64,000 nt of DNA from Tubulanus polymorphus (taxonomy: Eukaryota > Animalia > Nemertea), in assembly GCF_964204645.1 (NCBI RefSeq), contig NC_134031.1, positions 12,836,088 through 12,900,087 on the forward strand. The letters run 5' to 3'. The notes beneath the pieces were generated by a model. It worked only from the letters and a program-made list of their open reading frames with translations. It searched no databases and was not told the origin of the DNA. The position numbers and the translations under genes were made by a program. Below, one piece after another: positions 15,077 to 46,300 of this stretch (its first letter is position 1; each line of letters opens with the position of its first letter).

Positions 15077-15077
15077 A

Positions 15078-20937: not shown

Positions 20938-21210
20938 AGAGTAATAGGGAATATCTTGTTTCATACCAAAGGTCGAAAGGTCGAGCTCATAAAAAATGAA
21001 AAATATGAAAATAATAACAATTTCTATTTGAATTAGTAGCGAAACTCATATAAAATGAAAAATAATTCTCGCACACTCGAATTTATTTTTCATTTTATAT
21101 GAGTTTCACTCCTAATTCAAATAGAAATTATTATTATTTTCATATTTTTCATTTTTTACTCACTAGCCCTTTCGACCTTTGATATGAAACAAGATATTCC
21201 CTATTACTCT
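20938..21210. repeat. ~273-bp imperfect terminal palindrome of element C
   Basis: agagtaatagggaatatcttgtttcata...aaaatgaaaaataa / ttatttttcatttt...tatgaaacaagatattccctattactct. Loop around 21066-21080. Confidence 0.93.
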
Positions 21211-21287
21211 TAAAATATTCATATATATGAATAAAATATAAATGAATAACTTCTAAAATCAATTTTAATAAAAATTATAGTATTAAA

Positions 21288-21539
21288 ATGGAAGCAAATA
21301 AGTACTACTGTTCAACATGTAATATCAATATAGATAAATCCCAAAAAGCAAGACACAATAAAACTAAAACACATTTAGAGTATAAATTGAAACTAGAATA
21401 TTTACAGTTATATTTAGAACAGTTAACAAAGGCAAAGAAATTTATTGATCAATGGAACAATGATCCAAATAATGAACAATACGTTGAGGAATTTGATATC
21501 AAGGAATCGAAACAACTTATCAAAAGCAGCGAGGAATGA
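21288..21539 (+). pseudogene. Chimeric ORF: pPolB N-terminal zinc finger fused to an HNH-protein C-terminal tail
   Basis: The first ~39 aa nearly equal ORF 38052 (MEANKYYC.TCNINIDKSQKARHNKTKTHLE). QLYLEQLTKAKKFIDQWN...EQYVE resembles the end of ORF 21617. Confidence 0.8.
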
Positions 21540-21616
21540 AAAAGGATGACATTGGTCGAAGAAATGGAAGAGGATTCTAAAATATTAACCAATTTAGTAA
21601 AAAATACATATAATAA

Positions 21617-22270
21617 ATGGAACCAGAACAACCACAAATTATCAATATTACAAATAACACTGCTGGTTTTATAAATACATATTACAAGAAGTGTTCTAAG
21701 TGTGAATTAGATAAATCATTAACAGAATTTAATAAGTGTAAGATTAGCAAAGATGGTTTTCAATATTGCTGTAAAACTTGTTTTAAACTATATACCAAAC
21801 AATATCGAGAAGATAATAGAGAAGCCTATAATGATTATATGACAGAATATATGAGAGAAAGATATCAAACAGATCTTAATTTTAGATTAAAACAATGTTT
21901 ACGGTCTAGATTAACACAATTATTCAACAAAGAAACACATTCAGAAACATTATCTAATTTGTTGGGTTGTTCAGATGAATTTTTCAAATCATGGATTATA
22001 TTTCAATTCGATGATAAAATGAATATAGATAATTATGGTGAATACTTTCATATTGATCATGTGTTGCCGATTTCTAAATTTGACATGAATGATGATTATA
22101 AAAAGAAGCTAATCTGGAACTGGAGAAATTTAAGACCTTTAGAAAAGAAGGAAAACATAATTAAATCTAACAAACTAGATATACAGTTATATTTAGATCA
22201 ACTGGATAAAGCAAAGACATTTGTTGAATTATGGAATTCAACACATAATGAAAAATACGTTGAATGTTAA
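21617..22270 (+). CDS. HNH endonuclease of the large-DNA-virus type with an N-terminal CxxC...CxxC zinc ribbon
   Basis: CSKC...DGFQYCCKTC; LRSRL...LLGCS.EFFKSWI.FQFDDKMNIDNYGEYFHIDHVLPISKFD...WRNLRPL.KKENIIKSNK. Intact 217 aa with a TAAATG start. Confidence 0.85.
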   Translation: MEPEQPQIINITNNTAGFINTYYKKCSKCELDKSLTEFNKCKISKDGFQYCCKTCFKLYTKQYREDNREAYNDYMTEYMRERYQTDLNFRLKQCLRSRLTQLFNKETHSETLSNLLGCSDEFFKSWIIFQFDDKMNIDNYGEYFHIDHVLPISKFDMNDDYKKKLIWNWRNLRPLEKKENIIKSNKLDIQLYLDQLDKAKTFVELWNSTHNEKYVEC

Positions 22271-23429
22271 ACGCTTAGAAAACCGGTTACTCTCGATCTA
22301 TGTCAAACCGCCTGTATGTAATTGTATTAGGTTGTTTACAAAAGCATCTGTCGCACGTTATATTCAGTTGAATAGGGCGCACCTCATTTGAATATTGATC
22401 GAATGTGCTATTTCAGTTGAAAAGGATTAATCAATTATATTACAAAAGAAGGAACATCTGTTGCACCAGACGGTGTTTAGCTAGTGAATAACTGGCAGTT
22501 ATAAACGCGCAGCACATAAGCATAGGAACGTATAGGATATTCTCTCTATAAACACAATTTTAGGAGTTTACAGTTATAAATGTAAGTACTGTTTTTGTTG
22601 TTATTAAGGCGTTGGGAAACGTTAAACTTGTAAAACTTATCCTGGTAAGATGCGCCACAAAATGGTCATGTTTAAGTGTTGTAATTAATATTTTACAACT
22701 ACAACTTCAAGTTAGTTTTATTCTACGTGAGATATTTATCTTTTAGATAACAAAATGAAGACCATTGAATCTAGAAAGTGAAGATAGATGGATGTGGAAT
22801 CAGAAATAATGGATATTTCAACTCATGAGACTGTAGCAGTTTAGCCATACTGTATAGGCTTTCAATGCATTACGTTTGCCGGGAATTTCAATTGCGTCAT
22901 TAAGCTATTGTTAATGACACACAGTGACAGATGTTGTATTGTACTTTATTGATTCCTGCATTCCACGCATAACTTACCGCTCCTCTCTGGAGCGGCTTGG
23001 AATGTGGAAATCGATAATGATTGTAGAATAAAATATATATGTATTTATGAAATAGTATTTCCAACAGTCAGTTCTTTGAATTTATTTTCAGTTTTAGGAT
23101 TTATTTATCGAGAATCCGAAATGACTTATCTGGACAGTTATAATTACTGCTCCTAATAGATAAACAAAAGTAGTGAGATAATCTAAATCCTAATTTAAAT
23201 AATATATAATAATAAAACAATAACTTCAACTAGCTAGTGAATTCTATTATGTTTTTAATACTTTCTTTTCAAAAGAGAATACTTTATATTTTGAATAGAT
23301 TCAAATAGAAATTCTTTTAAGTTCAAATAGCTAGTATCAGTAGTCAATACTAGAATTCTTTAGCTTTAACTAGCTAGTATCATTTTATAATACTTATAAT
23401 ATTTTTCTTATTAAATTTCTCTAATATAA

Positions 23430-24032
23430 ATGTCAAAGAAATCGAGTAAGAATAATACTGATATTGAAAAAACATTAGATGATTTGGGTATAAGTGATAA
23501 TAAAGATACAGTTGTTTCTTATTCTATTCAAGTTAATAACAATATAGATTATGAATACTATTTATATTGTAAGCATCATATAGAACTATTGATTGCCGGT
23601 GGAAAAACTAATGAGTTTTTAAATAGAATCATTACTTTTCAAGAACTAGATGCTATGAAACCAGATAAAGTAATAAAATATTTTAAGATTTATGAAGAAG
23701 CAAGATTAGCTAGAATAAATGATTCTATTTCAGATGGTATTGTCAAATGTTACTCTAAGTTATGTAACCAGTTAATACCAATTGATGATGAAAATAAATT
23801 ATATAGTGATTTGAAAAATGACTACTTAGTTATGACTGAATTACGAAAATGGGTCGGTTATGCTTCATTCCAATTAGGATCTGTTATGACATTAATTTCT
23901 ACTGGCGTCATAACATTTTCGAACATCAAGCCTATGGAATATAAATCAGGTAAGAACGAAACACATGTACTACAACCAAACGTCGAAACAGAAAATGAAT
24001 CAGAACAAAAATTAACTAAGATAAATGAGTGA
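23430..24032 (+). CDS. Polinton hypothetical protein, 200 aa
   Basis: Intact ORF with a TAAATG start and a hydrophobic segment (YASFQLGSVMTLISTGVITF). Overlaps the next gene. Confidence 0.75.
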   Translation: MSKKSSKNNTDIEKTLDDLGISDNKDTVVSYSIQVNNNIDYEYYLYCKHHIELLIAGGKTNEFLNRIITFQELDAMKPDKVIKYFKIYEEARLARINDSISDGIVKCYSKLCNQLIPIDDENKLYSDLKNDYLVMTELRKWVGYASFQLGSVMTLISTGVITFSNIKPMEYKSGKNETHVLQPNVETENESEQKLTKINE

Positions 24033-24393
24033 TAGCGTTAAGAAAAATGCTAGATCTGAAAAACAAATTAAATGGGCAAGAGAATTAGGTAAAAGATCTT
24101 CAGAATTAAAAAAAGCTAAGAAAAAGAAATTAACTGATATAAATGAATCACAGACTTTATCTGATATTAATTCAAATAACAATCCATCTGATTCTTCTAA
24201 TGCTGGAAGAAATAATTACTTATATATTACAATTGGATTAGTAACAGTTATTATATTATCCGGTGTAATATATAAATCAAAATTCAAATCTGATGATAAA
24301 GATGATTCCAATGACAATAAACCTATCATACCAGAAAATAAGTCAAATCATAAAGTCATTGAAACTAAATCTAAATTATTATTAATGGATTAA
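24025..24393 (+). CDS. Small single-pass membrane protein, 122 aa
   Basis: Basic N-terminus and TM-like YLYITIGLVTVIILSGVIY. TAAATG start. Confidence 0.7.
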   Translation: MSDSVKKNARSEKQIKWARELGKRSSELKKAKKKKLTDINESQTLSDINSNNNPSDSSNAGRNNYLYITIGLVTVIILSGVIYKSKFKSDDKDDSNDNKPIIPENKSNHKVIETKSKLLLMD

Positions 24394-24399
24394 AATAAG

Positions 24400-25517
24400 A
24401 TGAAAAAAGAACAATATTTAAGAGATTTATATTATAACCCAGAAAGTGAAGTATCATATTCTAACGTTACAGAATTATGGAATAAAATTAAATCCGATAA
24501 TGAAAATGGTAATGGTGCCGTATGGCACCCACACGGTGATATAAAATATAATGAGTTAAAATCATGGTTACAAAATCAACCAACATATCAAATTCACAAG
24601 AAAATGAATAAAACTTATTTAACAAGAAAAGTTATGGTTTCATATATCGATCAACAATGGCAAGCAGATTTAATTGACATGAAGAACTTAGAAGAATACA
24701 ACAAAGGATATTTCTGGATATTGAATGTTATAGACATATTCAGTCGATACGCATGGTCAATTCCAATCAAAATTAAAACTGGAATAGAAGTTACAAATGC
24801 TTTTAAATCTATATTCAAAGAAGATATTCCAGATAAGATACAATTTGATGAAGGTAAGGAATTTTATAACAAACATTTCAAAAAACTATTATCTGATAAC
24901 GATGTAAAATATTTTCAACACACTCAGATAAAAAAGCATCTATTATAGAAAGATTTAATAAAACATTGAAAACTAGAATGTGGAAATGTTTTACTGCTAA
25001 TGAAACATATAAATATATCGATGTATTAGATGATTTAGTGAAAGGTTATAATAATTCTAAACATTCAAGTATTGGTATGTAACCTATGCAAGCTAGAAAA
25101 GAAGATAATTCAGAAATAGTTTGGAATAATTTATATGGAGCATTTGTTACACATGATTTCGGTGAACCTAAATTTAAAATAGGACAACACGTTAGAATAT
25201 CTAAATATAGAAAAACATTTTATAAAGGTTATACCCCTAATTTTACAGACGAAATATTCAAGATTAAAAAGATAACATTAACTAAACCTTTTGTTTATAA
25301 ATTAGAAGATCTAAAAGATGAAGAAATATTAGGTTATTTCTATGAACAAGAATTATCATTTGTACCAAATCCAGATGAAATAGAATACAAAATAGAAAAA
25401 TTATTGAAATCAAAAACTCTTAAAGGAAAAAAGTATTCTTTGGTGAAATATAAAGGATACGATGATAAATTTAATGAATGGATTTTATCTAGTAAAATTA
25501 AAAGAATAAATGAATAA
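24400..25517 (+). pseudogene. Retroviral-like (rve/c-INT) DDE integrase with C-terminal chromodomain; one frameshift and one stop
   Basis: YLRDLYYNP, WQADLIDM, LNVIDIFSRYAWSIPIK.KTG.EV..AF, IQFDEGKEFYN, then after a 1-nt loss at ~24915 STHSDKKASIIERFN.TLK. In-frame TAA at ~25080. FKIGQHVRISK, GYTPNFTDEIF, chromo-like YKIEKLLKSK...LVKYKGYDDKFNEWI. Confidence 0.93.
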
Positions 25518-26121
25518 AGATTTATTTATATTTGAACCGCATAATATGTTAGTTACTGGTGTAACCAATTGTGGTAAAACACATTTCATATTAGATTTGT
25601 TAGAAACTATTTATAAGAATCATTTAGATAACATAATATTATTTTGTCCTACTTATGAAATGAATAAAACATATAATAGAGATATAGTTAAGATAAAAAA
25701 GTTTATTATATTAGATCCTAAAACAGTAAAAGAAAATTTAGATAATTGTATTAAAATAGCAATTGATATCTATAAAGGATCAAATACATTATTCATTATA
25801 GATGATTGTGCTAATCTACATGATTCAAAAGTGAGAGAAAGTGAGTTATGTTATCTAGCTTTCTCTGGGAGACATTTCGGGATAACAACATGGGTTTTAA
25901 ATCAAAAATATAATTCAATTGTTAAAGACTTTAGGGAGAATATAAGATTTTTAGTTTTATTTTATAACAAAGATAGAAAATCTATGCAACAATCATTGGA
26001 AGAAAATCAAATTATACCTACTGAATTACATGATGAATATATGAATAAATTAAAGAATAATAAAGGTTCAAAATTATTACTGAGACTACAATTTCCCTAT
26101 GAATATAAGTTTATAAAATAA
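25510..26121 (+). CDS. A32/FtsK-HerA family genome-packaging ATPase
   Basis: Walker A GVTNCGKT, Walker B FIIDD, arginine-finger motif SGRHFGI and sensor NQ. Intact 203 aa. Confidence 0.93.
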   Translation: MNKDLFIFEPHNMLVTGVTNCGKTHFILDLLETIYKNHLDNIILFCPTYEMNKTYNRDIVKIKKFIILDPKTVKENLDNCIKIAIDIYKGSNTLFIIDDCANLHDSKVRESELCYLAFSGRHFGITTWVLNQKYNSIVKDFRENIRFLVLFYNKDRKSMQQSLEENQIIPTELHDEYMNKLKNNKGSKLLLRLQFPYEYKFIK

Positions 26122-26500
26122 CTATTTATATATCTATGTATTAGATACCCTATTAGATACCCTAATACCTGATACCCCATTAGATACCCTAATACCTGAT
26201 ACCCTATTAGATACCTTAAATACTTAAAACCCCCTTTTTTAAAATAAATATTATTTATACAATTTTCAACCAATTTATTTTTATTTTTTCAACAAATATA
26301 TGAATAAGTTTGAAAATAATAAAGGTTATTTATTATTACTGAGGTTTCAATTTCCATATGAATATCAGTTTATAAAATAAGATATTTTTATGTATTAGAT
26401 TGTATTAGATTGTATTAGATATGTATTAGATACCTTAAATACCTTAAATACTTAAAACCCCCTTTTTTATTTACTATTATTTTATACAATTTTCAACCTT
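26095..26500. repeat. Duplicated intergenic block with short tandem repeats at the convergence of the two gene arms
   Basis: atgaatat.agtttataaaataa...tgtattagatacc...ccttaaatacttaaaacccccttttt occurs twice (~26099-26240 and ~26358-26468), with ttagataccct and tgtattagat iterations. Confidence 0.8.
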
Positions 26501-26505
26501 TATTA

Positions 26506-27369
26506 TTATTTGATTGTTAGATAATTAATTTCTGAATCACTTTCATCATCACTCTCCAATTCATTATCAGGCCCTAACAATTTATTCAAATGCTCTACCG
26601 TGTCTTCATAAATAATTGGTTTATTGATATACTTATTAGGCATCTCAACTATATCTTTATTTTCTGATTTAAGTTTCATAGAATCTTTATTATCAATGCG
26701 CTTTCCTGTATTTTCATTATTATCTTTATTAGTGTTTGCTCCTAATATTTCATTTACAGTGTTTGATCCTAATATTTCATTAGCATAAGTTATATCTAAT
26801 TCATCTTTATTAGGTGTTGCTAATAAAAAATCTTCATATAATTCTTTACCATTTACTTCTTTATTTGAAACAAATTTTGTAACATATCTAAATGGGTGTT
26901 CTATAAATTCTCTTAAACCAACACGTTCTATAACATTAGTAATATGTGAATTTGTATTCATATGTTTATTCCAATTTGATGGAGCGTTTGAAAATTCACC
27001 TTTACAATAATCACAATAATTTCTATTTTTACTTACATTTAATATTATTGCATTATTATATGTAGTAGGTATTACATTATTAGATGTAGTAGGTATTACA
27101 TTATTAGATGTAGAAGGTATTACATTATTAGATGTAGTAGGTATTACATTATTAGATGTAGTAGGTATTACATTATTATCAATTACATTACTTAAATTAT
27201 CAACAACACCACCTTTATTATTATTGATTTCTATTAGTTTAGTTTTATAAATTTTGAAAATAGGATCAAATATCAAAGCTATATTACAAGGTATTACATA
27301 ATATAAACCATCATTATTTTCATGTGTATCGATGTATGGAATATGTTTATATACTTTACCTCCTTCCAT
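26506..27369 (-). CDS. Zinc-finger protein with 8-aa repeats, 287 aa
   Basis: CDYCKGEFSNAPSNWNKHMNTNSH (C2H2-like), five NNVIP(T/S)T(S/Y) repeats and an acidic tail. TAAATG start. Confidence 0.75.
   Translation of the reverse strand: MEGGKVYKHIPYIDTHENNDGLYYVIPCNIALIFDPIFKIYKTKLIEINNNKGGVVDNLSNVIDNNVIPTTSNNVIPTTSNNVIPSTSNNVIPTTSNNVIPTTYNNAIILNVSKNRNYCDYCKGEFSNAPSNWNKHMNTNSHITNVIERVGLREFIEHPFRYVTKFVSNKEVNGKELYEDFLLATPNKDELDITYANEILGSNTVNEILGANTNKDNNENTGKRIDNKDSMKLKSENKDIVEMPNKYINKPIIYEDTVEHLNKLLGPDNELESDDESDSEINYLTIK
27051..27178. repeat. 24-bp coding minisatellite (5 copies)
   Basis: cattattagatgtagtaggtatta repeated. Encodes NNVIPTTS. Confidence 0.95.
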
Positions 27370-27404
27370 TTATTATATATATTTTTATATTTTAAGTTAA
27401 AATT

Positions 27405-28652
27405 TTAATACATAACACTATCTAATTGTGTATTTACAATATTTAATTGCGCGTCAGATATAATATAAATGTGCATTTTGAAATTTTTGATTCCTTTATT
27501 CTTTGTCATGAATAATTGTATTCCATCTTTAGTGTTCTGTAATTTTTTTCCAGAACCATGTAATGAATTATCCTCTGTTGTTCTAAAATCTAACCATAAT
27601 GCGTATTTATTACCGGTATATTAATCAATTTGATTAATGTTACAATTTTCAGATGATTTTACTTTTTCATTCATAAAATGTTTTCTAATTTCTGGCCATT
27701 GATCTATCATTCTCATTCCTTGACAAAATATTTTATTTGCTATTCCTTCGATAGTTATTTCTACTTTTGTTATTTCAGGATTATAATACTTATCAACCTG
27801 TATTGCACCATTAGTATATGTTGCAATGGTAATAAATATCAATATACCTTTAATAGATCTTCTTGGGAAGTTAATATTCTCATTAATTATTTCATCATTT
27901 GCATTAATAGTTACAGTTTTAAATTTAACAATATAATCATATAATAATGAAAATCCTTGATTGTATTTAGTTTGAATTATACTTGAAATATTTTCATCAG
28001 TTACTGTATCATATTCTAAACATATATTCGATAATTTATAACTCATATCTTTAACAACGCTAGATAATACAATTTCATTTACAGGAGTAAATGTTATTTC
28101 GAATATAACGTCTTCTTGAATTGCGTATTTATATAAAGGCGCATTATTATTTATCAATTCAAAGTCTAATGGAATTTTATATTTGTTTCCATATATACTT
28201 TTTATCAATTTATCTATAGAATTAGTTAATATTGCATTATGTGCTTCTGATCTTAATTTATTTTGGTTTTCTGATTGGATTCCTTGAAATATCATATTAT
28301 TTCTATTTTCTTTAGTTAACCATAAATCTTTATAATGCATAAATAAATTATAATCATCTAATGAGAAAACTTTTTCTGGACCAATCTTTATAGTTAATTT
28401 TTTAATCAAATATCTCCCAACATTATCAACAACATAATTATTATTATTACCGATTACTTTTATATCGGCTGATAAATAAATATTATTTGGAACATAAAAA
28501 GTATTTTGTGTTAATCTCGGAATTCTAACATATAAAGTTTCATCAGGATTAATATTAGAAGGGTTATGAGTAATTATATGATGTGATCTTTCTGCTTTAA
28601 TAGCATTAGATATTCTATGATTCTTAGAAGGATTGATATAACTCCCACTCAT
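27405..28652 (-). pseudogene. Major capsid protein (putative double jelly-roll), ~415 aa, one premature in-frame stop at 27621
   Basis: HNPSNINPDETLYVRIPRL, VVDNVGRYLIKKLTIKIG, KYKIPLDFE, YKLSNICLEYDTV, NFPRRSIKGILIF, YNPEITKVEITIEGIANKIF. The frame continues past TAA as YTGNKYALWLDFRTTEDNSLHGSGKKLQNTKDGIQL...SDAQLNI. Size and context fit an MCP. Confidence 0.82.
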
Positions 28653-28672
28653 TTATTTAACAAAAAAATTAA

Positions 28673-30031
28673 TTACTTATTTTTGATCATGTTTACTAAC
28701 CCAAAAATAATTGCACTTACAACTGTAATTAAAAATAAAATAATATGTTCAGCAGCAAAGTTAATAATGTTTCCTGCAGATTTCAATATAAAACCAACAA
28801 TTGATGCAATAACTCCTGGCAATGCTGCAGCAGATTTCTTTGATAGTTCCCATAAATATTTTGCTAATTTCTTTAAACCATCTTTAACTTTATCTTGTAT
28901 AGAATTATTATCATTCGGGGGTTTATCTGGTTTATTGACAGTAGGAGTATATTTTAAAGCATTTGATATAGCTAAACCAATTGTTGTAAATACCATAGTT
29001 ACAGCTGTTAGAATTGAAAGAATTGTTATTCCTTCTAATTTAAATAATAATTTTATTCTATCTTTCAATGATATTTTAGAATTTGGTTTTATCAACAAAT
29101 CTTTAAAAACATCTTTTAATCTTTTAAAATTATTACCAAATTCTTTTAATAATATATCTCTTTCACCTTTCAGTACTTCTAAATTATCTTTTAAATTATT
29201 AATTTCTTTTTCTAAACCTAATTCTTTTTGCCTATATTCTATTTCATCAATTGCTTGATGGTCTAAATCAGACTTTAATTTTTCTATTTCTTTATTTTTA
29301 TCAGTTAATTCTTTTTCTAAATTGTTAATTTTAATATCTCTTATACTTTTTTCATTCGCAATTTTATCAGCCGATTCTTGCATACCTTTAATTTCTCTAC
29401 GTGTTTGTTCAGGATATAATTCTAATTCATCATCAGTTAAATCAAGTAATCCCTTCGGTAAAAGTTTTTCAGTTTGAACTTCGTTTGATTTAGGTTTACT
29501 AGTTTTGGAAGTTTTATTCTGTTCAGAAGTTGTTTCTGTTTCTGGATTATCATCGATTATTTTAAATAAGTCATCAATTCTTTGACTAAATACTCTTATA
29601 TTATCATCTCTTTCTTCTTGTGTAACATTGGTTATTTCATTACTAATACGTATTCTCTTAATTTTATCTGGACCTAATTTTCTCAAAGTTGATTCCGCTA
29701 ATATTAAAAGTCTGGCGCCTCTATCATTTATATTATATCCAGATTCTTTAAATACACGTTGAAAATCATACATAAAATCAATATTTTCAATATCTTCCTT
29801 TGATAAACCTGGGTCTAAATTTTCAGTAGGTATTCTCGATCTAGTTCTTCTATCAAATTCATCTGTTGATGGGGCTTTAGAACCACTATCAGCTAAATTA
29901 GAATTATATGTTGTATCATTATCATTATCAATATTAGTATCAGCAGTCATATAATCATCATTGTTAGTATTGGCATCATCATTATTTCCCATGCCTTCCA
30001 TTTCATAATCTTCTCCACCTTTTACATTCAT
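28673..30031 (-). CDS. 452-aa protein: acidic N-terminus, coiled coil, C-terminal hydrophobic helices
   Basis: Coiled coil ~INNLEKELTDKNKEIEKLKSDL. Hydrophobic GITILSILTAVTMVFTTIGLAIS, ALPGVIASIVGFIL and IILFLITVVSAIIFGLV. Confidence 0.8.
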   Translation of the reverse strand: MNVKGGEDYEMEGMGNNDDANTNNDDYMTADTNIDNDNDTTYNSNLADSGSKAPSTDEFDRRTRSRIPTENLDPGLSKEDIENIDFMYDFQRVFKESGYNINDRGARLLILAESTLRKLGPDKIKRIRISNEITNVTQEERDDNIRVFSQRIDDLFKIIDDNPETETTSEQNKTSKTSKPKSNEVQTEKLLPKGLLDLTDDELELYPEQTRREIKGMQESADKIANEKSIRDIKINNLEKELTDKNKEIEKLKSDLDHQAIDEIEYRQKELGLEKEINNLKDNLEVLKGERDILLKEFGNNFKRLKDVFKDLLIKPNSKISLKDRIKLLFKLEGITILSILTAVTMVFTTIGLAISNALKYTPTVNKPDKPPNDNNSIQDKVKDGLKKLAKYLWELSKKSAAALPGVIASIVGFILKSAGNIINFAAEHIILFLITVVSAIIFGLVNMIKNK

Positions 30032-30047
30032 TTACATAATAAAAAAA

Positions 30048-31373
30048 TTAAAATTTAAAATATAATATTCCTCCGATTACAATTCCTAAACAAGTTAAAG
30101 CTAATTTAGCATTTTCATGGGATTTATTATCATCATTTAGTTTAATTATATCATGTTGAATATTATCAGTTTTTATATTTTCTGATGTATTGTAATCTTT
30201 TATTTTAGAATCATTATTTAATTTAATATTCTTAGTTTTAGTTTCAGTTGATTGAATATGTTTTTTATTTTTTTCACCTTCCATTAATTTTGGAGCAGTA
30301 ATTATCTTTTTATTTATATCATTTAATCCAAATGAATTATTTATTGTTGCAGTTTTAATTAGATTATTATAACCAATTATGTTTCCCATCTTTAATACTA
30401 AATCATTAGAAATAATAAATAGATTAGGGCCTATACAATAATTTAATCTAATATGTGATTTATCTAAATAATTTTGATATCTTACAATGTTTTCTGGAAT
30501 AGATCTTTTTTTATCATTATGAATTGAATCTTCAAATAATACTTTAAATTGTTTCTGCGCATCGAATGAAGTGTTATCATTTCCAACTATTGGTGATCTT
30601 GTTTCAACTTGAGCACCTAAAATACATATCAAATAAGTTCTAATAGATTGATTTATTCTTTGTATTCCAGCTTTAGTAAAACCTTCTCTATTTTCTAAAA
30701 TGAAATTAACCCAACCATTATTATTTTGTTGTTGTATATTATTATAATATTTTGGTAATTCATTCCAATTTAGTGTTCTTATATCTGAATTTGTCATTAT
30801 TTTTCCAAATTCTTTAGTATACAATATTCCTAATCCACCCATTGTTCCAATTTTTGCTCTAAAATCTTTATTTGAATTAATATTAAATTCATTACATATT
30901 TTATAAAACTTAGAAAAATTAATATTATTATTCAATTCTTTAAAATATTTTGAACCTGGTAAAGGACATTCTAATTCATCTAATATTAATTTCATTTGAA
31001 AATATTTATGAAATCTAAAAAGTGATAATATCAATGGTAAACTTGGTTTGTTTAAATGATCATTCCAACTAATTCCACATCCTGTTGTTGCGCAATAAAC
31101 AGCAAAATTTAATTGGTTCTGCCAATACTTCATATTAGATTTTAATAACCATTGTTTTGCCTCATTTAAATTTTTGAAATTAATTGTATACACATGAAAT
31201 ATATTTTCCATCTTTACATGAAAATTATTACTTTCAGTTACATAAATATATAAATCAATTAATGAATTTAAAACTTCATTTCTATATGTAATATCTTTAT
31301 TAAAATCTATTGCTGGAATATTATATTTAATTGATTTATTATATTGGAAAGCTTTTGGAAAACTATTTGCCAT
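30048..31373 (-). CDS. 441-aa conserved Polinton protein with C-terminal membrane anchor
   Basis: YWQNQLNFAVYCATTGCGISW and GFTKAGIQRINQSIRTYLICILGAQVETRS are conserved with copy A. Tail LALTCLGIVIGGILYFKF. Confidence 0.82.
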   Translation of the reverse strand: MANSFPKAFQYNKSIKYNIPAIDFNKDITYRNEVLNSLIDLYIYVTESNNFHVKMENIFHVYTINFKNLNEAKQWLLKSNMKYWQNQLNFAVYCATTGCGISWNDHLNKPSLPLILSLFRFHKYFQMKLILDELECPLPGSKYFKELNNNINFSKFYKICNEFNINSNKDFRAKIGTMGGLGILYTKEFGKIMTNSDIRTLNWNELPKYYNNIQQQNNNGWVNFILENREGFTKAGIQRINQSIRTYLICILGAQVETRSPIVGNDNTSFDAQKQFKVLFEDSIHNDKKRSIPENIVRYQNYLDKSHIRLNYCIGPNLFIISNDLVLKMGNIIGYNNLIKTATINNSFGLNDINKKIITAPKLMEGEKNKKHIQSTETKTKNIKLNNDSKIKDYNTSENIKTDNIQHDIIKLNDDNKSHENAKLALTCLGIVIGGILYFKF

Positions 31374-31454
31374 TTATATAATTAAAAAATTAATTATTTA
31401 TTAATTCTTTTAATAATTTATCTTGTTCTTCAACTGTTATATGACCATTTAAAC

Positions 31455-31823
31455 TTAAATATAATCTAGTGTATTCTTTAATTTATTAATTTCTTTTATA
31501 TTAGTTTTAATTTTTTCTTTATTACTTTTTATATTTAATTTTGAACTTATACCAGTTAAAACACTTGAACTTAATCCTAATACACCAATTGATATAGCTA
31601 AAGGTGTTAATGGACTGAATATTGCTAGAAATGTTATTACAGAACTAATTGTAACCGAACCACTGATAATAAGATAATATATAATTTTACTTTTTAAATA
31701 TTTTTTCTTTTTTATCTTTAAGTCACTTTCAAATTCTAATATTTGTTTTTCTAAATATATTTTTAATTTAGTTTTATTTATATCATGAGGAATAATATTA
31801 ACACCATCAACTTTATCATCCAT
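31455..31823 (-). CDS. Two-TM membrane protein flanked by coiled/basic segments (C-terminus probably cut by a premature stop)
   Basis: IIYYLIISGSVTISSVITFLAIF and LAISIGVLGLSSSVLTGIS. TAAATG start. Confidence 0.7.
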   Translation of the reverse strand: MDDKVDGVNIIPHDINKTKLKIYLEKQILEFESDLKIKKKKYLKSKIIYYLIISGSVTISSVITFLAIFSPLTPLAISIGVLGLSSSVLTGISSKLNIKSNKEKIKTNIKEINKLKNTLDYI

Positions 31824-31841
31824 TTATTTAGCAAAAAATTA

Positions 31842-32264
31842 CTAATCAGTAAATTTATAAGCAACAAATATAACAATAACTGTTCCCCCTAAAATCCAAA
31901 TTATTTCATATTTCTTCTGTTCATTACTTGGGGTATAATAATCTGATATTGTACGTTTGTATAGATGTAATTTTTCTTTATTGGTTACTGCGTTATATAA
32001 ACTCATTGCATCATCAACTGATTGAAAATCTCTATGTGAAATCTTCTGATCATATAATTCTTTATTGATGTAATCCATATAGTTTAGTCTCTTTTCTCTA
32101 TATTCTTCCGCTGCTTTATTATATTTCTCTAATGCTAAGTTATGTCTTTTTTGTTCGGTTAATGAACCATTTTTATCAATATGCTTGAATAAATAACCAC
32201 CACCAGTAAATGCTAAATCGTTAACAATTGCTGATCCTATAATAGTTATAACTGCAGAAGCCAT
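31842..32264 (-). CDS. 140-aa membrane protein (hydrophobic N- and C-termini)
   Basis: MASAVITIIGSAIVNDLAFTGGGYLF ... IIWILGGTVIVIFVAYKF. Confidence 0.78.
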   Translation of the reverse strand: MASAVITIIGSAIVNDLAFTGGGYLFKHIDKNGSLTEQKRHNLALEKYNKAAEEYREKRLNYMDYINKELYDQKISHRDFQSVDDAMSLYNAVTNKEKLHLYKRTISDYYTPSNEQKKYEIIWILGGTVIVIFVAYKFTD

Positions 32265-32288
32265 TTATTTAGTAAAATAATTATGCAT

Positions 32289-32510
32289 TTATATGGGAGG
32301 AATATATTTTTGTTTTTCTAAATAATCAATAGTTAAATTAGATAAAGTAACTGCTAATTTTAATTTTAAAATATCATTTATATCAAATCTATCAACAATA
32401 ACACTTCCCATTTTAAATACTTTTTTTAATACCATTGAATAACCAACAGTTCCAACTGATAGTAATGCGCCATTATATAATCCAGTTATTATCCACTTAT
32501 TATCACTCAT
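32289..32510 (-). CDS. 73-aa hydrophobic protein
   Basis: WIITGLYNGALLSVGTVGYSMVL and ILKLKLAVTLSNLTIDYLEKQKYIP. TAAATG start. Confidence 0.7.
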   Translation of the reverse strand: MSDNKWIITGLYNGALLSVGTVGYSMVLKKVFKMGSVIVDRFDINDILKLKLAVTLSNLTIDYLEKQKYIPPI

Positions 32511-32867
32511 TTATTTATCAAAAAAATTACTATCATCAAAATATTTAGTTATCTTATTTATGATTAATTCAACATTTATTTCATTACTAGTTTCATTTGT
32601 ATATATTTCAATTATTATTTTTTTAATATCATCGATGATAAAATCTTCATCTAATTCATAAAATCTTAAAGATTCTCTTATTAAATTAGTAATCTTTTCT
32701 ACATTTAAAGTTTCTTTATTTATTGTTGTTTCATACTCAAATATTGTTTCATTAGAAAATGTAATATTTTTGATATGTGTAATTACATCAGTAATGTTAA
32801 ATTTCATTTCTTTCTCATGTTTAAAATCAAACCCAAAACATATACTCGGCCCAACAGTTATATTCAT
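32511..32867 (-). CDS. Polinton hypothetical protein, 118 aa
   Basis: Intact ORF. Its start is conserved in copy A (12093) and it has a TAAATG context. Confidence 0.7.
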   Translation of the reverse strand: MNITVGPSICFGFDFKHEKEMKFNITDVITHIKNITFSNETIFEYETTINKETLNVEKITNLIRESLRFYELDEDFIIDDIKKIIIEIYTNETSNEINVELIINKITKYFDDSNFFDK

Positions 32868-32883
32868 TTATATAGTGAAAAAA

Positions 32884-33643
32884 TTACTCTTTACATCTTA
32901 TAACTAATTCATATATCACAGGAAAGTTATTCAAATCAATTAAATAACCATTATGATTTCTTATTTCTAATTTAAAATTATTAAATTTAGGAATGCAAGG
33001 TTTAAAATCACATTCCGTTAAATTATAATTTATTTGAGTTCCAAATTGTTTAAAATTTTTTAGCGGTAAAATATTTAGTATACTAGAACTACAAATTGTT
33101 TCTTTAGTTGCTTCGAAAGTTTTTGTAGGCTCGATTAAATTGCAATAAATATTAAAGTGTGTAAAAGGTATTATATTTGAATTACCATCTATGTTTCCTG
33201 TAACAGTATCTGGTGCAATTCCTAGCAATTTAGCTAATGGTTTTTTTTACCATAAATGCATGTTGACTTTCATCAAATACCTTTATTTTAATTTTATTTG
33301 TGCTATCACTTTTTATAAATCTAATTAAAAATTTATCATCTCTTCTAATTTTCAACCGTGCTCTTCGATTAATTTCTTGAGCTAATGATTCTAAATTATA
33401 TAATCCTGGTTTTAAAATTATATGAAACCATTTATCTATATTTCCAATATGAATTAAAAAAGTATTATCTTCAATAGTTTTATCCGTTAAATTATAAAAA
33501 GAATTACATAAACTTATATTAACTAATTTTAAATCTACACAATTCTTGAATTCTCTATCTAATTGTACTAGTAAATTATGAGATTTATAATTTGTAAGCC
33601 TTCTAGAATCAACAAATATTCTGTATTCTTTTAATTCTACCAT
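32884..33643 (-). pseudogene. Minor capsid (penton-like) protein, ~250 aa, one +1 frameshift in an A-run at ~33245
   Basis: IFVDSR, LVNISLCNSFYNL, LKPGLYNLESLAQEIN, LAKLLGI, IYCNLI and LEIRNHNGYLIDLNNFPV resemble the single jelly-roll minor capsid pattern of Polintons/PLVs. Confidence 0.72.
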
Positions 33644-33657
33644 TTATTTTACATATT

Positions 33658-34009
33658 TTATTCGAAATCTATTTCATAATGCCCTTTTTCATTCTTACCT
33701 TTGTATTCGAAATAGAAATCTCCAGAACATAATTCTTCTAAATCTTCACTTGATAATCTATGAAATCTATCTGGTAAATATGTTCTGAATTTATACGTAT
33801 TTCCTTTTAATCCTTCATATTCTAAGTGTATAACTAATTTATCTCCATAGTTATTAGTAACTGTATAAATATTTGTAATTAGATATTTCTCATGAATTGT
33901 TAATTGTTAACTTTTTGAATTTATAATCTACAGATTTTACATTTGTTATATCTTTAATTCTATCTAGAAATAATTTGTTGTTCTCACTGTGTGTTTGTTT
34001 ACTCTCCAT
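33658..34009 (-). pseudogene. Small MESKQ protein (~117 aa, possible OB-fold/SSB), frameshifted at ~33905
   Basis: Homologous to ORFs 11009 and 48127 (KYLITNI.TV.N.YGDKLVIHLEYEG...FRTYLPDRF). Confidence 0.65.
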
Positions 34010-34038
34010 TTATAATACATATTTTTATTAAAATTTGA

Positions 34039-37000
34039 TTAACACGTTAGAATTCTTTTCATTATTCCGTTCTCTTTTGTTTCTTCTCTTTTAGATTTTA
34101 AGTATTCATCTAAATTGCAACCATAAGCAACTGTATGAATTCCATCATCTAAAATATATCTTTTATCATCAAATGGGTTTAGACTAATCTTTTCAATTTC
34201 TTCAATAAACATTTCATGATCTTCACATCTTAAACATCTCATTTTATGTTTTCTAACTTCTTCATTGAATATACAATTGATGTAATCTTTGAAATGAATA
34301 TTCTTTTCTACTACACTTTTGGTTATTCCTTTTAACTTTTTAGCTTCATGTTCTTTAGTTTTATATGAATACATTTTAGATCTAATACCTATGAACTCTA
34401 TCATTTCTTCACCACCTAATTCATCTTTGAATTTACCGGGAACTTTTGTATTATCATTGCTAAACAATTCATGATCTTTAGGATAATTACTGAAATCAAA
34501 ATGATGTTTTAATGTTTTTAAATCATCAGTTATGTTATCAGTTTTTATCTTTAATATGTAAGAATCTGTATCAAAACATAATATTTCTATATGTTTTTCT
34601 CCAAAAAGTGGTTGTAATATATTATAATAGAATTCATACATTAGTAATTTTGATAATTCTAAAACTGATGCTCCAACATAAATTGGTTTATTAAATTTCA
34701 TAGATGTTCTTCTCATCTTAACTGCAGCTAAATTTTCATCAAATATTCTGTTACCTATAAATTTAGGATATGTTTGTAAATGCCTTATCCTTTTGCCATT
34801 ACTAACTAACTCAATATCATTTCTATTTCTAATATATTCACAAGTCTTACCATAGAATGCATTATTCATTAGTTTGAAGAAATCTTTCTCGAAATCAGTT
34901 TTAGCTTTAGTTCTCTGTTTGGTGTTAAAATCTATATATTTTTCTAACCACTTAGATTGACTAAATGAAATATAACTATGTACTTTTTTTTAGAATCATT
35001 CCTTGTTTTAGATAAAACTTTGACATTCTGTAATGTACTACATAATTATATTGATCTTCTTGAGTTACCATTAACTTTTCTGTATGAATATGATTTTCGG
35101 GTTTAATTCTTTTTTGATAATTTGATAATTCTTCATGAGTTACAGTTTTATGTTCGGGACAGTAAGCTAGATTTCTAGATTTAAATTTAATATGTTCAGG
35201 ATATTCTAAATCTACAACAAAGAAGTAACCAGTATCTGAATCATCTGCAATATCTAGAATTCTTTTCTTCCAATCAAATTTATCATTATTTTCATTCTGT
35301 AAAACTTCAGTTAATTCAAATACTCCATAAGGTTGTGGTTCCATCATTGCACAACGATACAAATTATTTGCATCTATATATAATAACTTATATCCAGGGT
35401 TATCATTTACATTGAAATATCTATCACCTAATACACCTGATACTCCTCCTCTTATAGATTTTTCAAATAATAGTAATTGATCTATATTTGTTAACAAATC
35501 CATTTTTATATCTGTAAATTTTAATCCACAATCCCATGTTAAACCTGGTGATGAATAACAATGACAAGGATCAATGTTAAAATATTTTAGGTTTACATCT
35601 CTAAACCTTTCGAATATATCGGTTAATAATAATACATCTGATTTTAAATATAAATCTACTAATTGCCCATGATTTTCTATTTTGAAATGATTCCAAATAT
35701 TCAATGTTCTATTATATACTTCATCTTTAACATATTCATTTTTTAATTCATCATAGAATTGTTCTTTCAATAATTCAGTTATATTGAAATCATTATAATT
35801 TTTATAGAAAGCATATGGAATTGCGCCTTTATATCTCATTAATTGGTAATCATCATTATTTGGATAGTGTTGTTTTAATATTTTTAATTCATCATCAACT
35901 AATGATTTATGAACTATTAACTAGTTATTACACTACTAATAACTTATTATTACACTAGTTATCTAATGAACTATTTAAAAATCTATATGAATCTATAAAT
36001 CTTAAACACCCAAATTGGAATGATATATAATTCTCTGATGTTTTAGCTAACATTCTAAATTTATAAGTTGGAATTTTATCTTTTGATCTATTTGAATTTA
36101 ATCTTTCTATTTCATTATTAATTTCTTCTATTTTATTACATAACTGTTTGATGAATAAATGTGCATCATATCCTGATAGATTATGAAATATAACTGGTAC
36201 AAAGTTAATTTTCTTAGCTTGTAAGTTACAATTCTTATGTGCAGCGCCTCTAAACTTTCCATTCAAATGATCATGGTCTCTTACTTTTTTATCTTTATAA
36301 TTAAATATCTTTTCACAATAATAACATTTATCTGCAAACGCAAATGCTTCTTTATCTTCTTCTGTCATTATAATTTCTATATTTGTATTCAATAATTTAC
36401 TAAATCTTATTTCATATTCAATTAATAAGTCACAAAAATGATTGATAACATTTTCATTTCTATAATCATAATATTCACTTTCAATTAGTTCTGGATAATC
36501 AGATTTTATATATAACCCGAAAGCTGCGGCTGATTGATGAATCTTTTTAATAGTATTTGTTTTTGGTGGTTCATCTGAAAAATCATTTTCATTAGAATTT
36601 AATTTCTTTCTTTTATAATATATTTCTTTTCTATCTTGATCAGTTAGTTCTTTATTTAATGATTCAAAATCTCCATATATTACAAATGGTACTTTATTTT
36701 TGTAATCATATTTTTTGAATTCTAATATTTTATCTTTTTCATTTGGTAAAACTAATATACAATAATCATGATTTTCACATAATTGTTTATGATTTAATAA
36801 TGCACTTTCATTACTGAATCTATGTAAACATTTTCTACAAAGATATATTTTATGGAGATCATTTTCTGATTTAAAAAATAAATCTATTTGTTTAATCCAC
36901 ATATAATGATTCTCATAATATAGTATATCTATAACGTCGTTTGAATCATAATCTTTTGATAGGTATAAAGGTTCTAATGTATAATGTTTTATGTTGTTAC

Positions 37001-38052
37001 CTTTTGTATTTAGTAATTTGGTTAAATAAAATACATTTATCTTTATATTATTATCTCTTTCTATTTTTGGGATGTTTTTAATTATAACAGGATACTTATC
37101 TATCTTATAATTATTTTCAATTGTTTATAATGAGTTATTCTAAAACTATGTTGTTTATAATCTTCAACTGGGTGTAAACAACTCATTATAGCCCATAGAA
37201 AACATTTATCACCTTCATTTTGTACGTTTATTACAGCATTAGTTTTAAATGGTAGTTTAATATAACTTGATGCTTCAATATCTGGTTCTTTATAATATGA
37301 TACATTATTTTCATCAATTGGTTTTGATTTAGTTAACTTATTATATTTTGTGTTATAAACATGTAAAGTCATAAATATTATTTCATCAAATATTAAACCA
37401 GATCCTTCAAAATATTTCTCTTCTATTTTAGTTTTTACTTCATTATAACATTTATCTAATTTATCATCTATATATTGTTTAGATATAATATGTTGTGAAT
37501 GAGAATTTATATTATATATTGGTTTATCTTCAGATTTTATGAATTTAACTTTTGATGAAATACTTATTTTAGGATATTCAACATCAGTTATTATTTTTAT
37601 TATTTCATTCATATTTTCTAAATGTTTTTTATTTCCTTCTAATTTTCTTCTTTTTTATTATCTAATGAATTAATATAATTTCTTACATCTTCCATGTATG
37701 GTCTTTTATTGTTTAATTTATTTTTTATGTTTTAAATTGTCTTCTGTTTCTTATCATTATCTTTATCAAAATAATCTTCACCTAAAATATCATTATTCTT
37801 ATTTCTAATATGACTTTTAGATTTTAAATGTTCTTTATAATATCTTTTATCACTGAATGATTGATTACATGTATCACATTTGTATATTTCTCTTTCATTC
37901 TTTAATTCATCTAATTTAGTTTCTAATATATCATCTTCATATTCTAGTTTCAATTTATTCTCTAAATGTGTTTTAGTTTTATTGTGTCTTGCTTTTTGGG
38001 ATTTATCTATATTGATATTACATGTTGGACAGTAGTACTTATTTGCTTCCAT
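34039..38052 (-). pseudogene. pPolB, ~1300 aa: N-terminal zinc fingers, terminal-protein/OTU-like region, exonuclease with embedded EndoVII-like domain, polymerase; several lesions
   Basis: ORFs 38052, 37612, 36902, 35839 and 34869 are collinear. Motifs: CPTC..H..H, CDTC..H..H, EGSG, SSYIKLP, VINVQNEGDKCFLWAI, HYMWIK, IYGDFES, CYYC..VRDHDHLNGKFRGAAHKNCNL, FHNLSGYDAH, YIDANNLY, KLMNNAFYGKT, DTDS, KVPGKFKDE, RSKMY, KKLKGI. Confidence 0.95.
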
Positions 38053-38255
38053 TTTAATACTAAATTTTTTATTAAAATTGATAGAAGTTCAATGATTTAT
38101 ATCATGTATTATTTCAATCACACTTTACTAACACTTTTAATGTTTAAAAATCTAACTCACACAAATATGAATATTGAAATAATGTTGTAAATATATACTT
38201 TTATATTGAATAATCTGTCAATTTAAATGTTATTCATTTACATGAATATTTTAAG

Positions 38256-38665
38256 AGTAATAGGGGAATTGGGCTTTCAGGTTAAAGGTTGAATGGTCGA
38301 GTTCATTAAAAACAAATATTAAAAGTAATTTAAAACTATAATATATTTTCATAACCGTGTGTATTTCAGTTGAATAATAGAATAATTATTATTATTTGAA
38401 TATATTTGATTATATGAATTTGTGTATTGTAAATAAATCAATTGGTCACGGAGCGGAGCGGTAGCGAAGTGGAGCGACCAATTGATTTAATACAATATGC
38501 TTTTAAAATTTAAATCATTAATATCCTAGAATAAATATTTAGTTATGATATAAAATACACACGGTTATGAAAATATATTACAGTTTTAAATTACTTTTAA
38601 TGTTTTGTTTTTTAATGAGCTCGACCGTTCGACCTTTGGCTTGAAAGCCCATTACCCCTATTACT
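38256..38665. repeat. ~410-bp imperfect terminal palindrome of element B with a GC-rich apical loop
   Basis: agtaataggggaattgggctttca...aatatattttcataaccgtgtgtattt pairs with aaatacacacggttatgaaaatatatt...tgaaagcccattacccctattact. Inner stem taaatcaattggtc / gaccaattgattta surrounds acggagcggagcggtagcgaagtggagc. Confidence 0.93.
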
Positions 38666-43385: not shown

Positions 43386-46300
43386 TCAGAGGTATTTGTT
43401 GGACTGATGGTTGAAAATCGTGATCAGAAATGGAATTTGAACGTCGTTTTAAAACTACGTGTATTGTTGCTACTATGGTAATAAAATCTGACGATTTTCC
43501 GCTATCTCATTTCTGTCGGAAGTTCGTCGGAAAATCGTCGTTAATCCTATCCGTCGGTAATTAGTCGGTAAATAACCCCTATACAACCGACGATATCAAA
43601 CAGACAATTAAACACTTAATTACCATCTAATTACCGACATTTAATCGACCAAATAACCGCTCATTTACCGCAAGGGTCAATAGTTCAGTCGATTCAATCG
43701 TCGAATTCTCGGTATTTTTAGGATATGAAGGTGCCGAAATCATCCCGTAGTATCCCATGTGGATCAACATAGCCATGTAATCAGCTGACCCCTAGGTGGC
43801 GCTCCTTATCCAGCAAGGCAGAAACCCGTTATCGCTGCTTTGCAGCTATATTTATTTTTATTTTTCCCTTTTCCACACAGTTTTTTGTTAAAAGTGTAAA
43901 GGCTTCCTTACCTTACCGCTGTCGCCGATACAATCGTATCATACAAACGTATGATATCCTTCTGCTCACTTCAATCTCCAGATACTGCATGGGAATTTTG
44001 ATAAATCCAACATCGGAAATATGGCTCCGTTAAATTAGTAGCCATGTTGTGTTTTCTTTCCGACATTTCTCCCAGATTTTTTAGGAAGAGCTATCGAATC
44101 ATTCCCTATCTTCCCCACAATCAATTTCAAATTCAATTTTATGAATTTATTGCTCAGCGGGTTTACGCGTCCGGCGTTCGCGTGTCTGACAGGTTTACGG
44201 GCATTTGTTTGGAACCTCTTTAATATTTTTGATTTCTTGTTATTCCGGTTATTTCATTTAAGTATATTGCTGATCAGTTCATGTAACCAAAAGTGTCAAT
44301 AAACAGATTTTGAATTGATCAAGTTTAAATCAAGGTCGTTGAGTCGCGGATGGCTACTAGAATTACGTTCGTCTCAGAGAGAAAACAAACGACAGAAAAG
44401 TATCAGGTGATTATCGATAGCCTACTACGGTACACACAGTTGACAAATAGTGTTAGGCCTGTGCCGGTTGGTGCGTGCTGGGACTAAATATACTGGTTGG
44501 TCAGTTGGTTCGGTTGTGAAGTGTGGAAGCTAAGAAAGCCTACCGGTATTTATTTGTCTATAAGGCCTATTATATAGTAGCCAATACCATTTTAAGTACG
44601 TAGTTGTTACCCGTACGTGACTGTACAAGGTGATCTCCACAGGTTAACCGTACGTGAGTTCCCTACTAACGCCGTATGTGAGTTCCTAGTAGCCAATACC
44701 ATTTTAAGTACGAAGCTGTTACCCGTACGTGACTGTACGGTGATCTCCACTGGTCAGATGCAAGTCTTATACTAATAATTTCTCTAATTGCTTTATCAGA
44801 AAATATATTTAAATCTTCTAATTCTTGATCTGTTGCATCAAGTAACCCATTTGGTAAAAGTTTTTCAATTGGAACTTTATTTGATTTAAGTTTACTAGTT
44901 TTGGAAGTTATATTCTGTTCAGAGGTTGTTTCTGTTTCTAAATTATTATTGATTATTTCAAATAATTCATTAATTCCTTGTCTAAAAACTCTTTTATTTT
45001 GATTTATTTCTGTGTCGGTAACATTTTCTATTTCATTACTATTACTTATTCTTTTAATTCTAGATTCTGCTAATATTTTGTTTTGATTTTTATAAGTGAT
45101 ATTAATTTAATAATCATCTTTCAAATGATAATAATATTCACCATCTAAAAATTTTAATTATCTTACTAAATATCTGGCACCTCTACCATTTATATTATAT
45201 CCAGATCTTTCAAATATATGTTTGAAATTATAAATAGGCAAGATGTGTGTTAACTCAGCGCAGATAACGAGTGTCGGAAATACAGTGGATTCCTTGGAAC
45301 TAGGCTGGTGCGTCGTCCTTCTAGTTTATACGTCCATGCTCAAACTAATGAACCTTGCGACTCAGATTCGACTCAGAAACTAGGAATTGCTAGCGTATTG
45401 GATATAAATAAATATCCGTCATTGGCGAAACTGCTCAGGATTACTGTATTTGTATTACGATTCATTGAACGGATTACGTCAAAGAAAAACATTACAACGA
45501 ACAATGAGATTCAAGCTAGCGACATTCGATATGCGGAAAAATTATGGGTGAAATCTGTTCAGTCTGCCGCGTATTCTTATGAAATAACCATACTCAGAGA
45601 CAATTTCCCATTTCTCCCATTTCATAAGCTTCTCCACCTTCTACATCCATTTATATCTTATAAAAATTAAAATTTAAAATATAATATTCCTACTATTACA
45701 ATTCCTATACAAGTTATAGCTAATTTAGTATTTCCATGTGACTTATTATCATTATTACTTTTAATTATATCATGTTGAATAATATCAGTTTTTATATTTT
45801 CTGTAGTATTGCAATCATTTATTTTAGAATCATTATCCAATTTAATATTCTTAGTTTAATAGTCTATATTTAATAGTTTTAGTTTCTGTTGATTGAATAT
45901 GTTTTTTAAGTTTTTCACCTTCGATTAATTTTGGAGCGGTGATAGTCTTTTTATTTATATCATTTAATCCAAACTTATTATTTATTGTTGCAATTTTAAT
46001 TATAATATTATAACCAACTATATTTCCCATTTTTAATATTAAATCATTTGAAATAATTAACAAATTAGGGCCTATACAATAATTTAATCTCACATGTGGT
46101 TTATCTAAATAATTTTGATACCTTACAATGTTTTCTGGAATCGATCTATTTTTATCATTATGAATAGATCTTCAAATAAAAATTTAAATTGTTTTTGTGT
46201 ATCAAATGATGTATTTAAATGTCCAATTATTGGAGATCTTGTTTCAACTTGAGCGCCTAGTATGCAAATCAAATAAGTTCTAATTTATTGATTTATTCTT

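Follow-up and report, generated by a model that had tools for sequence, protein, structure and literature searches.

The stretch of Tubulanus polymorphus DNA considered here, 64,000 nucleotides of contig NC_134031.1 (positions 12,836,088 to 12,900,087, hereafter the window, numbered from its first letter), carries a decayed Maverick/Polinton element, termed element B, at 20940..38665 (17,726 bp, 24% GC, ends AGT...ACT). Nearly every gene of this element begins within a TAAATG hexamer that spans the start codon and is preceded at fixed distance by a further signal, an arrangement that one branch of Polintons shares and that probably serves the transcription machinery of a co-infecting large DNA virus.

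Gene content and ends of element B

By gene content, element B is a Maverick/Polinton, encoding a protein-primed family B DNA polymerase (pPolB), an rve integrase and an A32-like packaging ATPase; the capsid hallmark, a double jelly-roll major capsid protein, is represented by a Pfam Capsid_N match weaker than the cut-off (E 0.007), with PF16903 detected in one of the 102 homologues of the capsid protein. An adenovirus-type maturation protease had no Pfam match among the scanned open reading frames (ORFs) of element B or of its metagenomic relative L002, and the gene has possibly been lost or become divergent. Pfam and PHROG searches of the ORFs of element B recognised neither an RNA polymerase nor any known transcription factor.

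On the forward strand, the left part of the element contains a zinc-finger ORF within the left repeat (21288..21539), which duplicates the start of the ORF at 38052 and opens at TAAAATG behind an upstream run of A (A-run), followed by an HNH/endonuclease VII-like gene (21617..22270; PHROG 1035, E 7.6e-19; A-run, TAAATG), for which a protein search returned 18 unnamed homologues. Next come a Polinton protein of 200 amino acids without assigned function (23430..24032), which recurs in 31 of the 80 related loci and has a TAAATG start behind a signal resembling a run of T (T-run), and a 122-residue protein (24025..24393) whose TAAATG signal sits within the preceding ORF. The rve integrase with its chromodomain (24400..25517; Pfam rve E 5.5e-9, Chromo) is split in two ORFs and starts at TAAGATG, while the ATPase gene (25510..26121; Pfam Pox_A32 E 3e-11) has an A-run and a TAAATG located inside the integrase tail. 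A 250-nt direct repeat at 26036-26511, containing 27-nt tandem units, copies the 3' end of the ATPase gene together with downstream sequence.

The reverse strand encodes the remainder. A 287-residue zinc-finger-like protein (26506..27369; A-run, TAAATG) is restricted to the branch described below, with homologues in L001 and L003 only among the best 80 of at least 242 loci, and its L003 homologue had two matches among 1.84 billion representatives. The broken major capsid protein gene (27408..28652; T-run, TAAATG) has an ORF ending at 27621 and homology extending to 27408. It adjoins six tightly packed genes (28673..32867; T-run, TAAATG) for proteins of 452, 441, 122, 140, 73 and 118 residues, most of them with hydrophobic segments; four junctions within this group, plus the one to the capsid gene, measure 0-24 nt. 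The 441-residue protein (30048-31373; L002:2996-4324) is conserved and has invariant Cys/His residues; an earlier model was poor (predicted local distance difference test, pLDDT, 40), and a confident model of a homologue (pLDDT 76) had no fold match in BFVD or PDB by Foldseek. Two broken genes with starts at 33643 and 34009 (32890..34009; A-run, TAAATG) were delimited by tblastn of intact L002 proteins, the former presumably encoding a minor capsid protein and the latter being the homologue of a 114-residue L002 protein. The pPolB gene, with an endonuclease VII domain, lies in at least four pieces (34039..38052; Pfam DNA_pol_B_2 E 3.2e-7 and Endonuclease_7 on fragments), and an intact homologue is present in L018. 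Integrase, capsid, polymerase and two other genes are thus broken, and this copy is dead.

The family as such is multi-copy and integrated: reads with loose ends and differing flanks accumulate at 20940 (435 reads) and 38665 (1355 reads), and read depth is mostly 400-800 within the element versus about 17 in the right flank. Its ends agree with the Polinton end rule, AG...CT. Terminal inverted repeats are 94% identical over 167 nt and 75% identical at the tips, and each tip folds back on itself. The left palindrome, about 270 nt at the tip of the repeat (20940..21208; -106.6 kcal/mol, z -25), was matched in folding by none of 200 shuffles, its arm length differing between sister copies; the right one, about 410 nt (38256..38665; -114 kcal/mol, z -20), was matched by none of 100. 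The two palindromes are unlike in both length and sequence. Such palindromes could self-prime replication or be a product of fold-back copying. The flanks show no matching target-site duplication, for which chimeric or eroded ends are the likely reason.

The start-codon signal and its distribution

All thirteen TAAATG starts that the original prediction had placed in element B are exact on the coding strand, as are the two exceptions it had named, the integrase start at 24400 (TAAGATG) and position 38052 (TAAAATG), the probable start of the broken pPolB gene. In all, TAAATG occupies 14 of 18 candidate starts compared with 41 of 494 non-start ATGs (Fisher p 1.2e-11), the controls being limited to ATGs that are likewise the first after an in-frame stop because any TAAATG is, by definition, such an ATG. 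Enrichment over composition was evident: a null drawn from the upstream composition of each start gave a mean of 1.6 of 18, and 14 was reached in none of 1,000,000 draws. The four starts lacking the hexamer are 21288, 24400, 37612 and 38052, of which 37612 is probably an internal methionine of the broken polymerase. TAAG is the baculovirus-type promoter motif; a promoter of that type was rejected, given that the integrase of the window is the only gene to start at TAAGATG and that the L001 integrase has TAAATG.

The signal characterises a single Polinton branch. Relatives were taken as the best 80 of at least 242 capsid relatives in metagenomes, and in a FastTree phylogeny of 57 capsid proteins, comprising that of the window and those of the 56 loci whose capsid ORFs were of sufficient length, a single clade with support 0.999 unites the window with L001-L011; L060, a broken 55% relative outside the tree, was counted as a member. 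At homologous starts, counted where the alignment of a gene sets in close to its start codon, TAAATG is found in 25 of 29 cases in the branch, none of 34 in AT-rich outgroup loci and one of 100 in GC-rich outgroup loci. Among ORFs of at least 100 residues, it heads 7/7 in L001, 14/15 in L002, 5/6 in L003, 1/2 in L004, 2/2 in L005, 3/4 in L006, 3/4 in L007, 4/4 in L008, 2/2 in L009, 2/2 in L010, 0/2 in L011 and 1/2 in L060. The very AT-rich character that the original prediction had stressed holds for element B but is not general in the branch, L006 having 44% GC; the motif is kept there, and AT content is therefore no explanation, so that chance and base composition are ruled out together by this locus and the composition null. 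TAAATG moreover persists through changes of gene order and precedes accessory, lineage-specific genes. A deoxynucleoside kinase gene of L002 (L002:10340-10981; Pfam dNK E 1.7e-31) has a T-run TAAATG start; searches on its origin pointed to no single virus family, with Atlas clusters of phage, bacterial and nucleocytovirus proteins and one 37% viral match. Capsid and ATPase scans of viral contigs gave no relatives among the matches listed, and of two scans of bacterial genomes one gave none and the other one 44% fragment.

The shape of the signal was derived from 61 distinct TAAATG starts of the branch, drawn from 12 related loci whose kinship the statistics ignore, and compared with 111 non-start TAAATG. 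Position -12 relative to the ATG, nine bases ahead of TAAATG, is a T in 58 of 61 branch starts versus 41 of 111 non-starts (p 3e-15), and in all 14 window TAAATG starts. In ten capsid promoters, positions -13, -12 and -3 to -1 are invariant, whereas pairwise agreement at -9 and -8 is 22%, as expected of a free spacer, and upstream of -20 the base-frequency table has no strongly conserved position. Two upstream types occur: a T-run precedes the genes for the capsid and for the majority of hydrophobic proteins, while an A-run precedes those for the polymerase, ATPase, zinc-finger proteins and probable minor capsid protein. Back-to-back pairs of signals 18-24 nt apart are found in L007-L010. Taken together, this would fit a promoter layout of core, spacer and initiator.

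A function at the RNA level would account for the same word differently, with an in-frame stop shielding the start, AATAAA acting as poly(A) signal for the preceding gene, or translation restarting after the stop on a polycistronic mRNA. AATAAA does overlap the motif in 27 of 61 branch starts, G stands at +4 in 40 of 61 versus 22 of 111 non-starts, and genes are packed head to tail, the six measured junctions of element B being 0-29 nt long and made up largely of the motif, with starts 24025 and 25510 each overlapping the preceding ORF by 8 nt. Yet in 34 of 61 starts this position holds no AATAAA (22 of them being TATAAATG), and divergent pairs without an upstream gene on the same strand retain the motif. 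The TAA is the stop of the upstream gene once only among the 14 window TAAATG starts (32511/32510), as had been claimed, and stop-start coupling was rejected as a general cause. An invariant T 12 nt upstream combined with a free spacer would also be unlike a translation context, and an RNA-level role appears improbable.

Two further copies lie in the window. Copy A (7038..13702, forward strand) is partial, more decayed than element B and 82-88% identical to it, and keeps TAAATG starts at 10580, 11009, 11354, 12093 and 13487; an inverted near-duplicate (99%) of part of it (45603..49900, reverse strand) has the same five, the identity of the two copies to element B being 82-89%. The motif had been reported as retained in diverged copies at six positions, all of which are indeed TAAATG, but the sixth (21617) belongs to element B, and copy A and its inverted counterpart are too alike to count as independent evidence. 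The duplication itself (9200-17904 / 43386-49936, 96-99% identical) spans copy A and adjacent host repeats. Adjoining the right end of element B is a non-long-terminal-repeat retrotransposon (39111-42918), presumably Tx1-like, with endonuclease, reverse transcriptase and zf-RVT domains and with TAAATG at the start of neither ORF; very few of its nearest clusters have a record, and most of these are chordate, in keeping with a probable animal host. A 118-bp satellite array (49933-64000) truncates the inverted copy, and an Rfam search of window positions 1-53000, including the scanned part of the array, returned nothing.

Such decay invites the view that the signal is a relic of past helper dependence or a borrowed promoter style, present copies spreading or decaying without a helper. 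All three window copies are broken, the tips of element B are only 75% identical and no target-site duplication matches. Against this stand the intact capsid and ATPase genes of L001-L003, loci in which the motif is nearly complete (counts above), and its survival through rearrangement and before lineage-specific genes, which together make a relic very improbable.

Candidate readers of the signal

Comparison with poxviruses used published vaccinia consensus strings (PMC11423596, Table 1) in place of poxvirus DNA. The vaccinia late pattern T-N9-TAAATG matches 46 of 61 branch starts versus 43 of 111 non-starts (p 3e-6), and the late group I pattern 17 of 61 versus 2 of 111 (p 4e-7); among 39 iridovirus-like starts the same patterns match 18 and 2, neither enriched. 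The poxvirus early motif is not enriched (3 matches versus 2.6 expected). Vaccinia late promoters are described as placing TAAAT(G) across the start codon and, ten bases ahead of it, a conserved T within a T-rich stretch, whereas the intermediate class is described as rich in A and containing TAAA (PMC11980589, PMC5294985); TAAA is reported to be read directly by the poxvirus polymerase (PMC12917281) and to be carried by fish poxvirus genes as well (PMC4542343), and a back-to-back promoter layout has been reported in poxviruses (PMC3185747). The branch thus resembles vaccinia post-replicative promoters in TAAAT over the ATG, frequent G at +4, a T about ten bases upstream, T-rich and A-rich classes and back-to-back pairs. 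It differs in the distance of the conserved T, which lies one base farther in vaccinia, and in the spacer behind the A-run, 14 in vaccinia compared with mostly 10-11 in the branch.

The hexamer in itself is a weaker guide than originally supposed. TAAAT(G) had been put forward as the initiator of poxvirus promoters, and the upstream part of the branch signal does fit the vaccinia late consensus, but the hexamer is common in iridovirus-like contigs and is therefore not pox-specific. These contigs (L086, L087, L323-L338), which a motif scan brought up unexpectedly, carry MSV199, DUF5757, DUF5770 and DUF5772 domains, a combination that we take to mark invertebrate iridoviruses. Iridoviruses have a nuclear phase and include marine invertebrates among their hosts. 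The iridovirus-like signal is nevertheless of another kind: AATAAATG dominates, with 35 of 39 TAAATG starts versus 27 of 61 in the branch, the upstream T is not conserved (15 of 39), and the terminator words TAATG..CATTA, counted as word matches without folding, follow 14 of 80 iridovirus-like genes and none of 64 branch genes, against 1 of 39 and 2 of 48 in mid-gene controls. Such terminator words have been reported for invertebrate iridescent virus 6 (PMC5923455), while the AATAAATG motif is not described in the accessible text of the two reviews consulted. Branch proteins had no tblastn matches in the iridovirus-like loci. Observed and expected counts of AATAAA within coding sequence (180/176 in the branch, 92/83 in the AT-rich outgroup, 132/133 in the iridovirus-like set) did not separate the groups. 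A giant-virus metagenome-assembled genome matched repeatedly in the motif scan had TAAATG at 0-50% of starts per locus.

Because of the fixed spacing, the restriction to one branch, the short junctions and the lack of any recognisable polymerase or factor in the element, we favour, with moderate confidence, the reading that the signals are promoters for a viral RNA polymerase, supplied by a large DNA virus that co-infects the cell and is transcribed in the cytoplasm, the helper. Each gene would carry an upstream T-run or A-run, a fixed spacer and TAAATG over the start codon, read by the helper polymerase; transcription would initiate within the AAA, two bases short of the ATG, with slippage adding a poly(A) leader to the transcript, as poxviruses do; genes of the A-run type (polymerase, ATPase, zinc-finger proteins) would be expressed ahead of T-run genes (capsid, membrane proteins); and both replication and packaging of the element would take place in the factory of the helper. 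Intact elements would then likely live as integrated virophages. Should there be such a helper, the upstream T and the absent iridovirus terminator tilt the choice towards a pox-like virus, which would be its most plausible identity, while an iridovirus-like helper is possible but doubtful and another nucleocytovirus less probable again. The fullest version, in which the whole branch consists of germline virophages of an undescribed pox-like virus and runs a two-step intermediate/late programme on the helper polymerase, can be advanced only tentatively.

Several observations weigh against helper dependence or against its pox-like form. The comparison with consensus strings and the kinship among the 12 loci have been mentioned; the vaccinia intermediate pattern TAAAAA-N14-TAAA occurs in none of the 61 branch starts, whose spacers are mostly 10 (seven cases) or 11 (three cases), and the best conserved T is found at N8 (58 of 61), one base nearer than the N9 of vaccinia. 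The division between A-run and T-run genes is imperfect, the L010 capsid gene and two L007 membrane genes having A-runs and HNH genes both types. TAAATG heads 61 of 149 ORFs in 16 partly redundant iridovirus-like loci (29-58% per locus), a set that represents one related group with temporal classes mixed and without marine iridoviruses or asfarviruses, and it also occurs at 4 of 6 starts in L119 (16 kb) and 5 of 13 in L365. The latter two are unrelated viral contigs, L119 being presumably virophage-like and L365 carrying PCNA and a Ras-family gene. Kinase, HNH and tblastn searches found no poxvirus-derived gene in the branch, motif scans of viral contigs gave no recognised poxvirus among the matches listed, and a nuclear integrated copy would first have to come within reach of a cytoplasmic polymerase.

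A further point on that side comes from the outgroup, in which TATA lies within 8 nt of the ATG at 25 of 36 AT-rich starts versus 230 of 2962 in the background, and at 14 of 95 GC-rich starts versus 174 of 6880. AT-rich loci with such a word, for instance L013, L018, L029, L048 and L066 within L012-L080, have it too near the ATG for a TATA box, and it resembles the late initiator described for asfarviruses (PMC5294985). Start-proximal signals may consequently be older than the branch, leaving room for an element-wide or host-based mechanism. On such a mechanism the signals would be nuclear promoters served by host RNA polymerase II, with or without help from a factor that the element encodes, yielding nearly leaderless mRNAs, and the likeness to poxviruses would have arisen convergently out of an older TATA-type word close to Polinton start codons. 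Integration in the nucleus in many copies would suit it, as would the orphan zinc-finger proteins and the 441-residue protein without fold match in the branch. It sits poorly, though, with the lack of a strongly conserved position above -20, where a TATA box would sit, with the failure of Pfam and PHROG to reveal a TATA-binding-protein-like or other known factor, and with an upstream T that matches a vaccinia feature; the motif, moreover, stands before nearly all genes, the polymerase side included, and an element-encoded factor would have difficulty in starting its own expression. We regard a host-polymerase promoter as unlikely and retain promoters for a helper polymerase as the preferred explanation.

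Related systems and biological significance

Among the closest parallels is mavirus, the endogenous virophage of Cafeteria, whose promoters match the late motif of Cafeteria roenbergensis virus (CroV), and for which a late factor of the helper has been proposed to enter the nucleus and activate the integrated copy (bioRxiv 10.1101/068312). Both systems integrate, combine an rve integrase with pPolB and have before their genes the late promoter of a large virus, which in the branch is a putative one. Mavirus differs in its protist host, in the TCTA-type CroV motif and in a helper and a protective effect shown by experiment, whereas the branch groups by capsid with Polintons and has TAAATG as its motif.

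Other parallels come from animals. The original prediction had invoked mavirus late promoters and entomopoxvirus-associated Polinton-like viruses (PLVs), and both statements agree with the sources (10.1101/068312; PMC11296320): AHEV_PLV1/2 and CBEV_PLV1 were found in entomopoxvirus occlusion bodies and proposed as hyperparasites of poxviruses (PMC11296320). These PLVs are, like element B, Polinton-related, but they show the opposite gene set, encoding a protease and PLA2 while lacking an rve integrase; the helper idea derives from co-occurrence, the words promoter, motif and transcription being absent from the main text of that article. Vertebrate Mavericks have been suggested to provide virophage-like immunity against iridoviruses, host range being the sole ground on which their helper dependence was hypothesised (PMC8097293). 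Virion genes of adintoviruses are reported to occur in animals only (PMC8502044). Element B shares with these groups pPolB, rve integrase, ATPase, capsid, membrane-active genes and terminal inverted repeats, and is set apart by the protease not found and by its long terminal palindromes; no helper-type promoter is reported for them in the accessible text of either source (PMC8502044, PMC8097293). Terminal palindromes are described in Halocafeteria virophages and PLVs, likewise at the tip of the terminal repeat (bioRxiv 10.64898/2026.07.28.741278), where they measure 52 nt in the figured subtype and belong mostly to non-pPolB elements, compared with about 270 and 410 nt in the pPolB-bearing element B. 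A literature search, whose coverage excluded most subscription journals and bioRxiv supplements, found no report of a TAAATG promoter in Polintons, and the signal, which is real and extends across the branch, is apparently unreported.

The expression of animal Polintons, and their ability to form virions independently, are long-standing questions, and a branch-specific signal at fixed spacing before nearly every gene makes helper dependence directly testable. If the favoured explanation is true, hosts for which no such virus has been named should harbour a large DNA virus whose late transcription is of pox style. On the fullest version outlined above, other AT-rich branches, those with TATA next to the ATG, may be adapted to different helpers. 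Polinton promoters would then constitute a readable record of unknown large invertebrate viruses and, on what is at present hypothesis only, the elements that carry them might act as a heritable antiviral defence.

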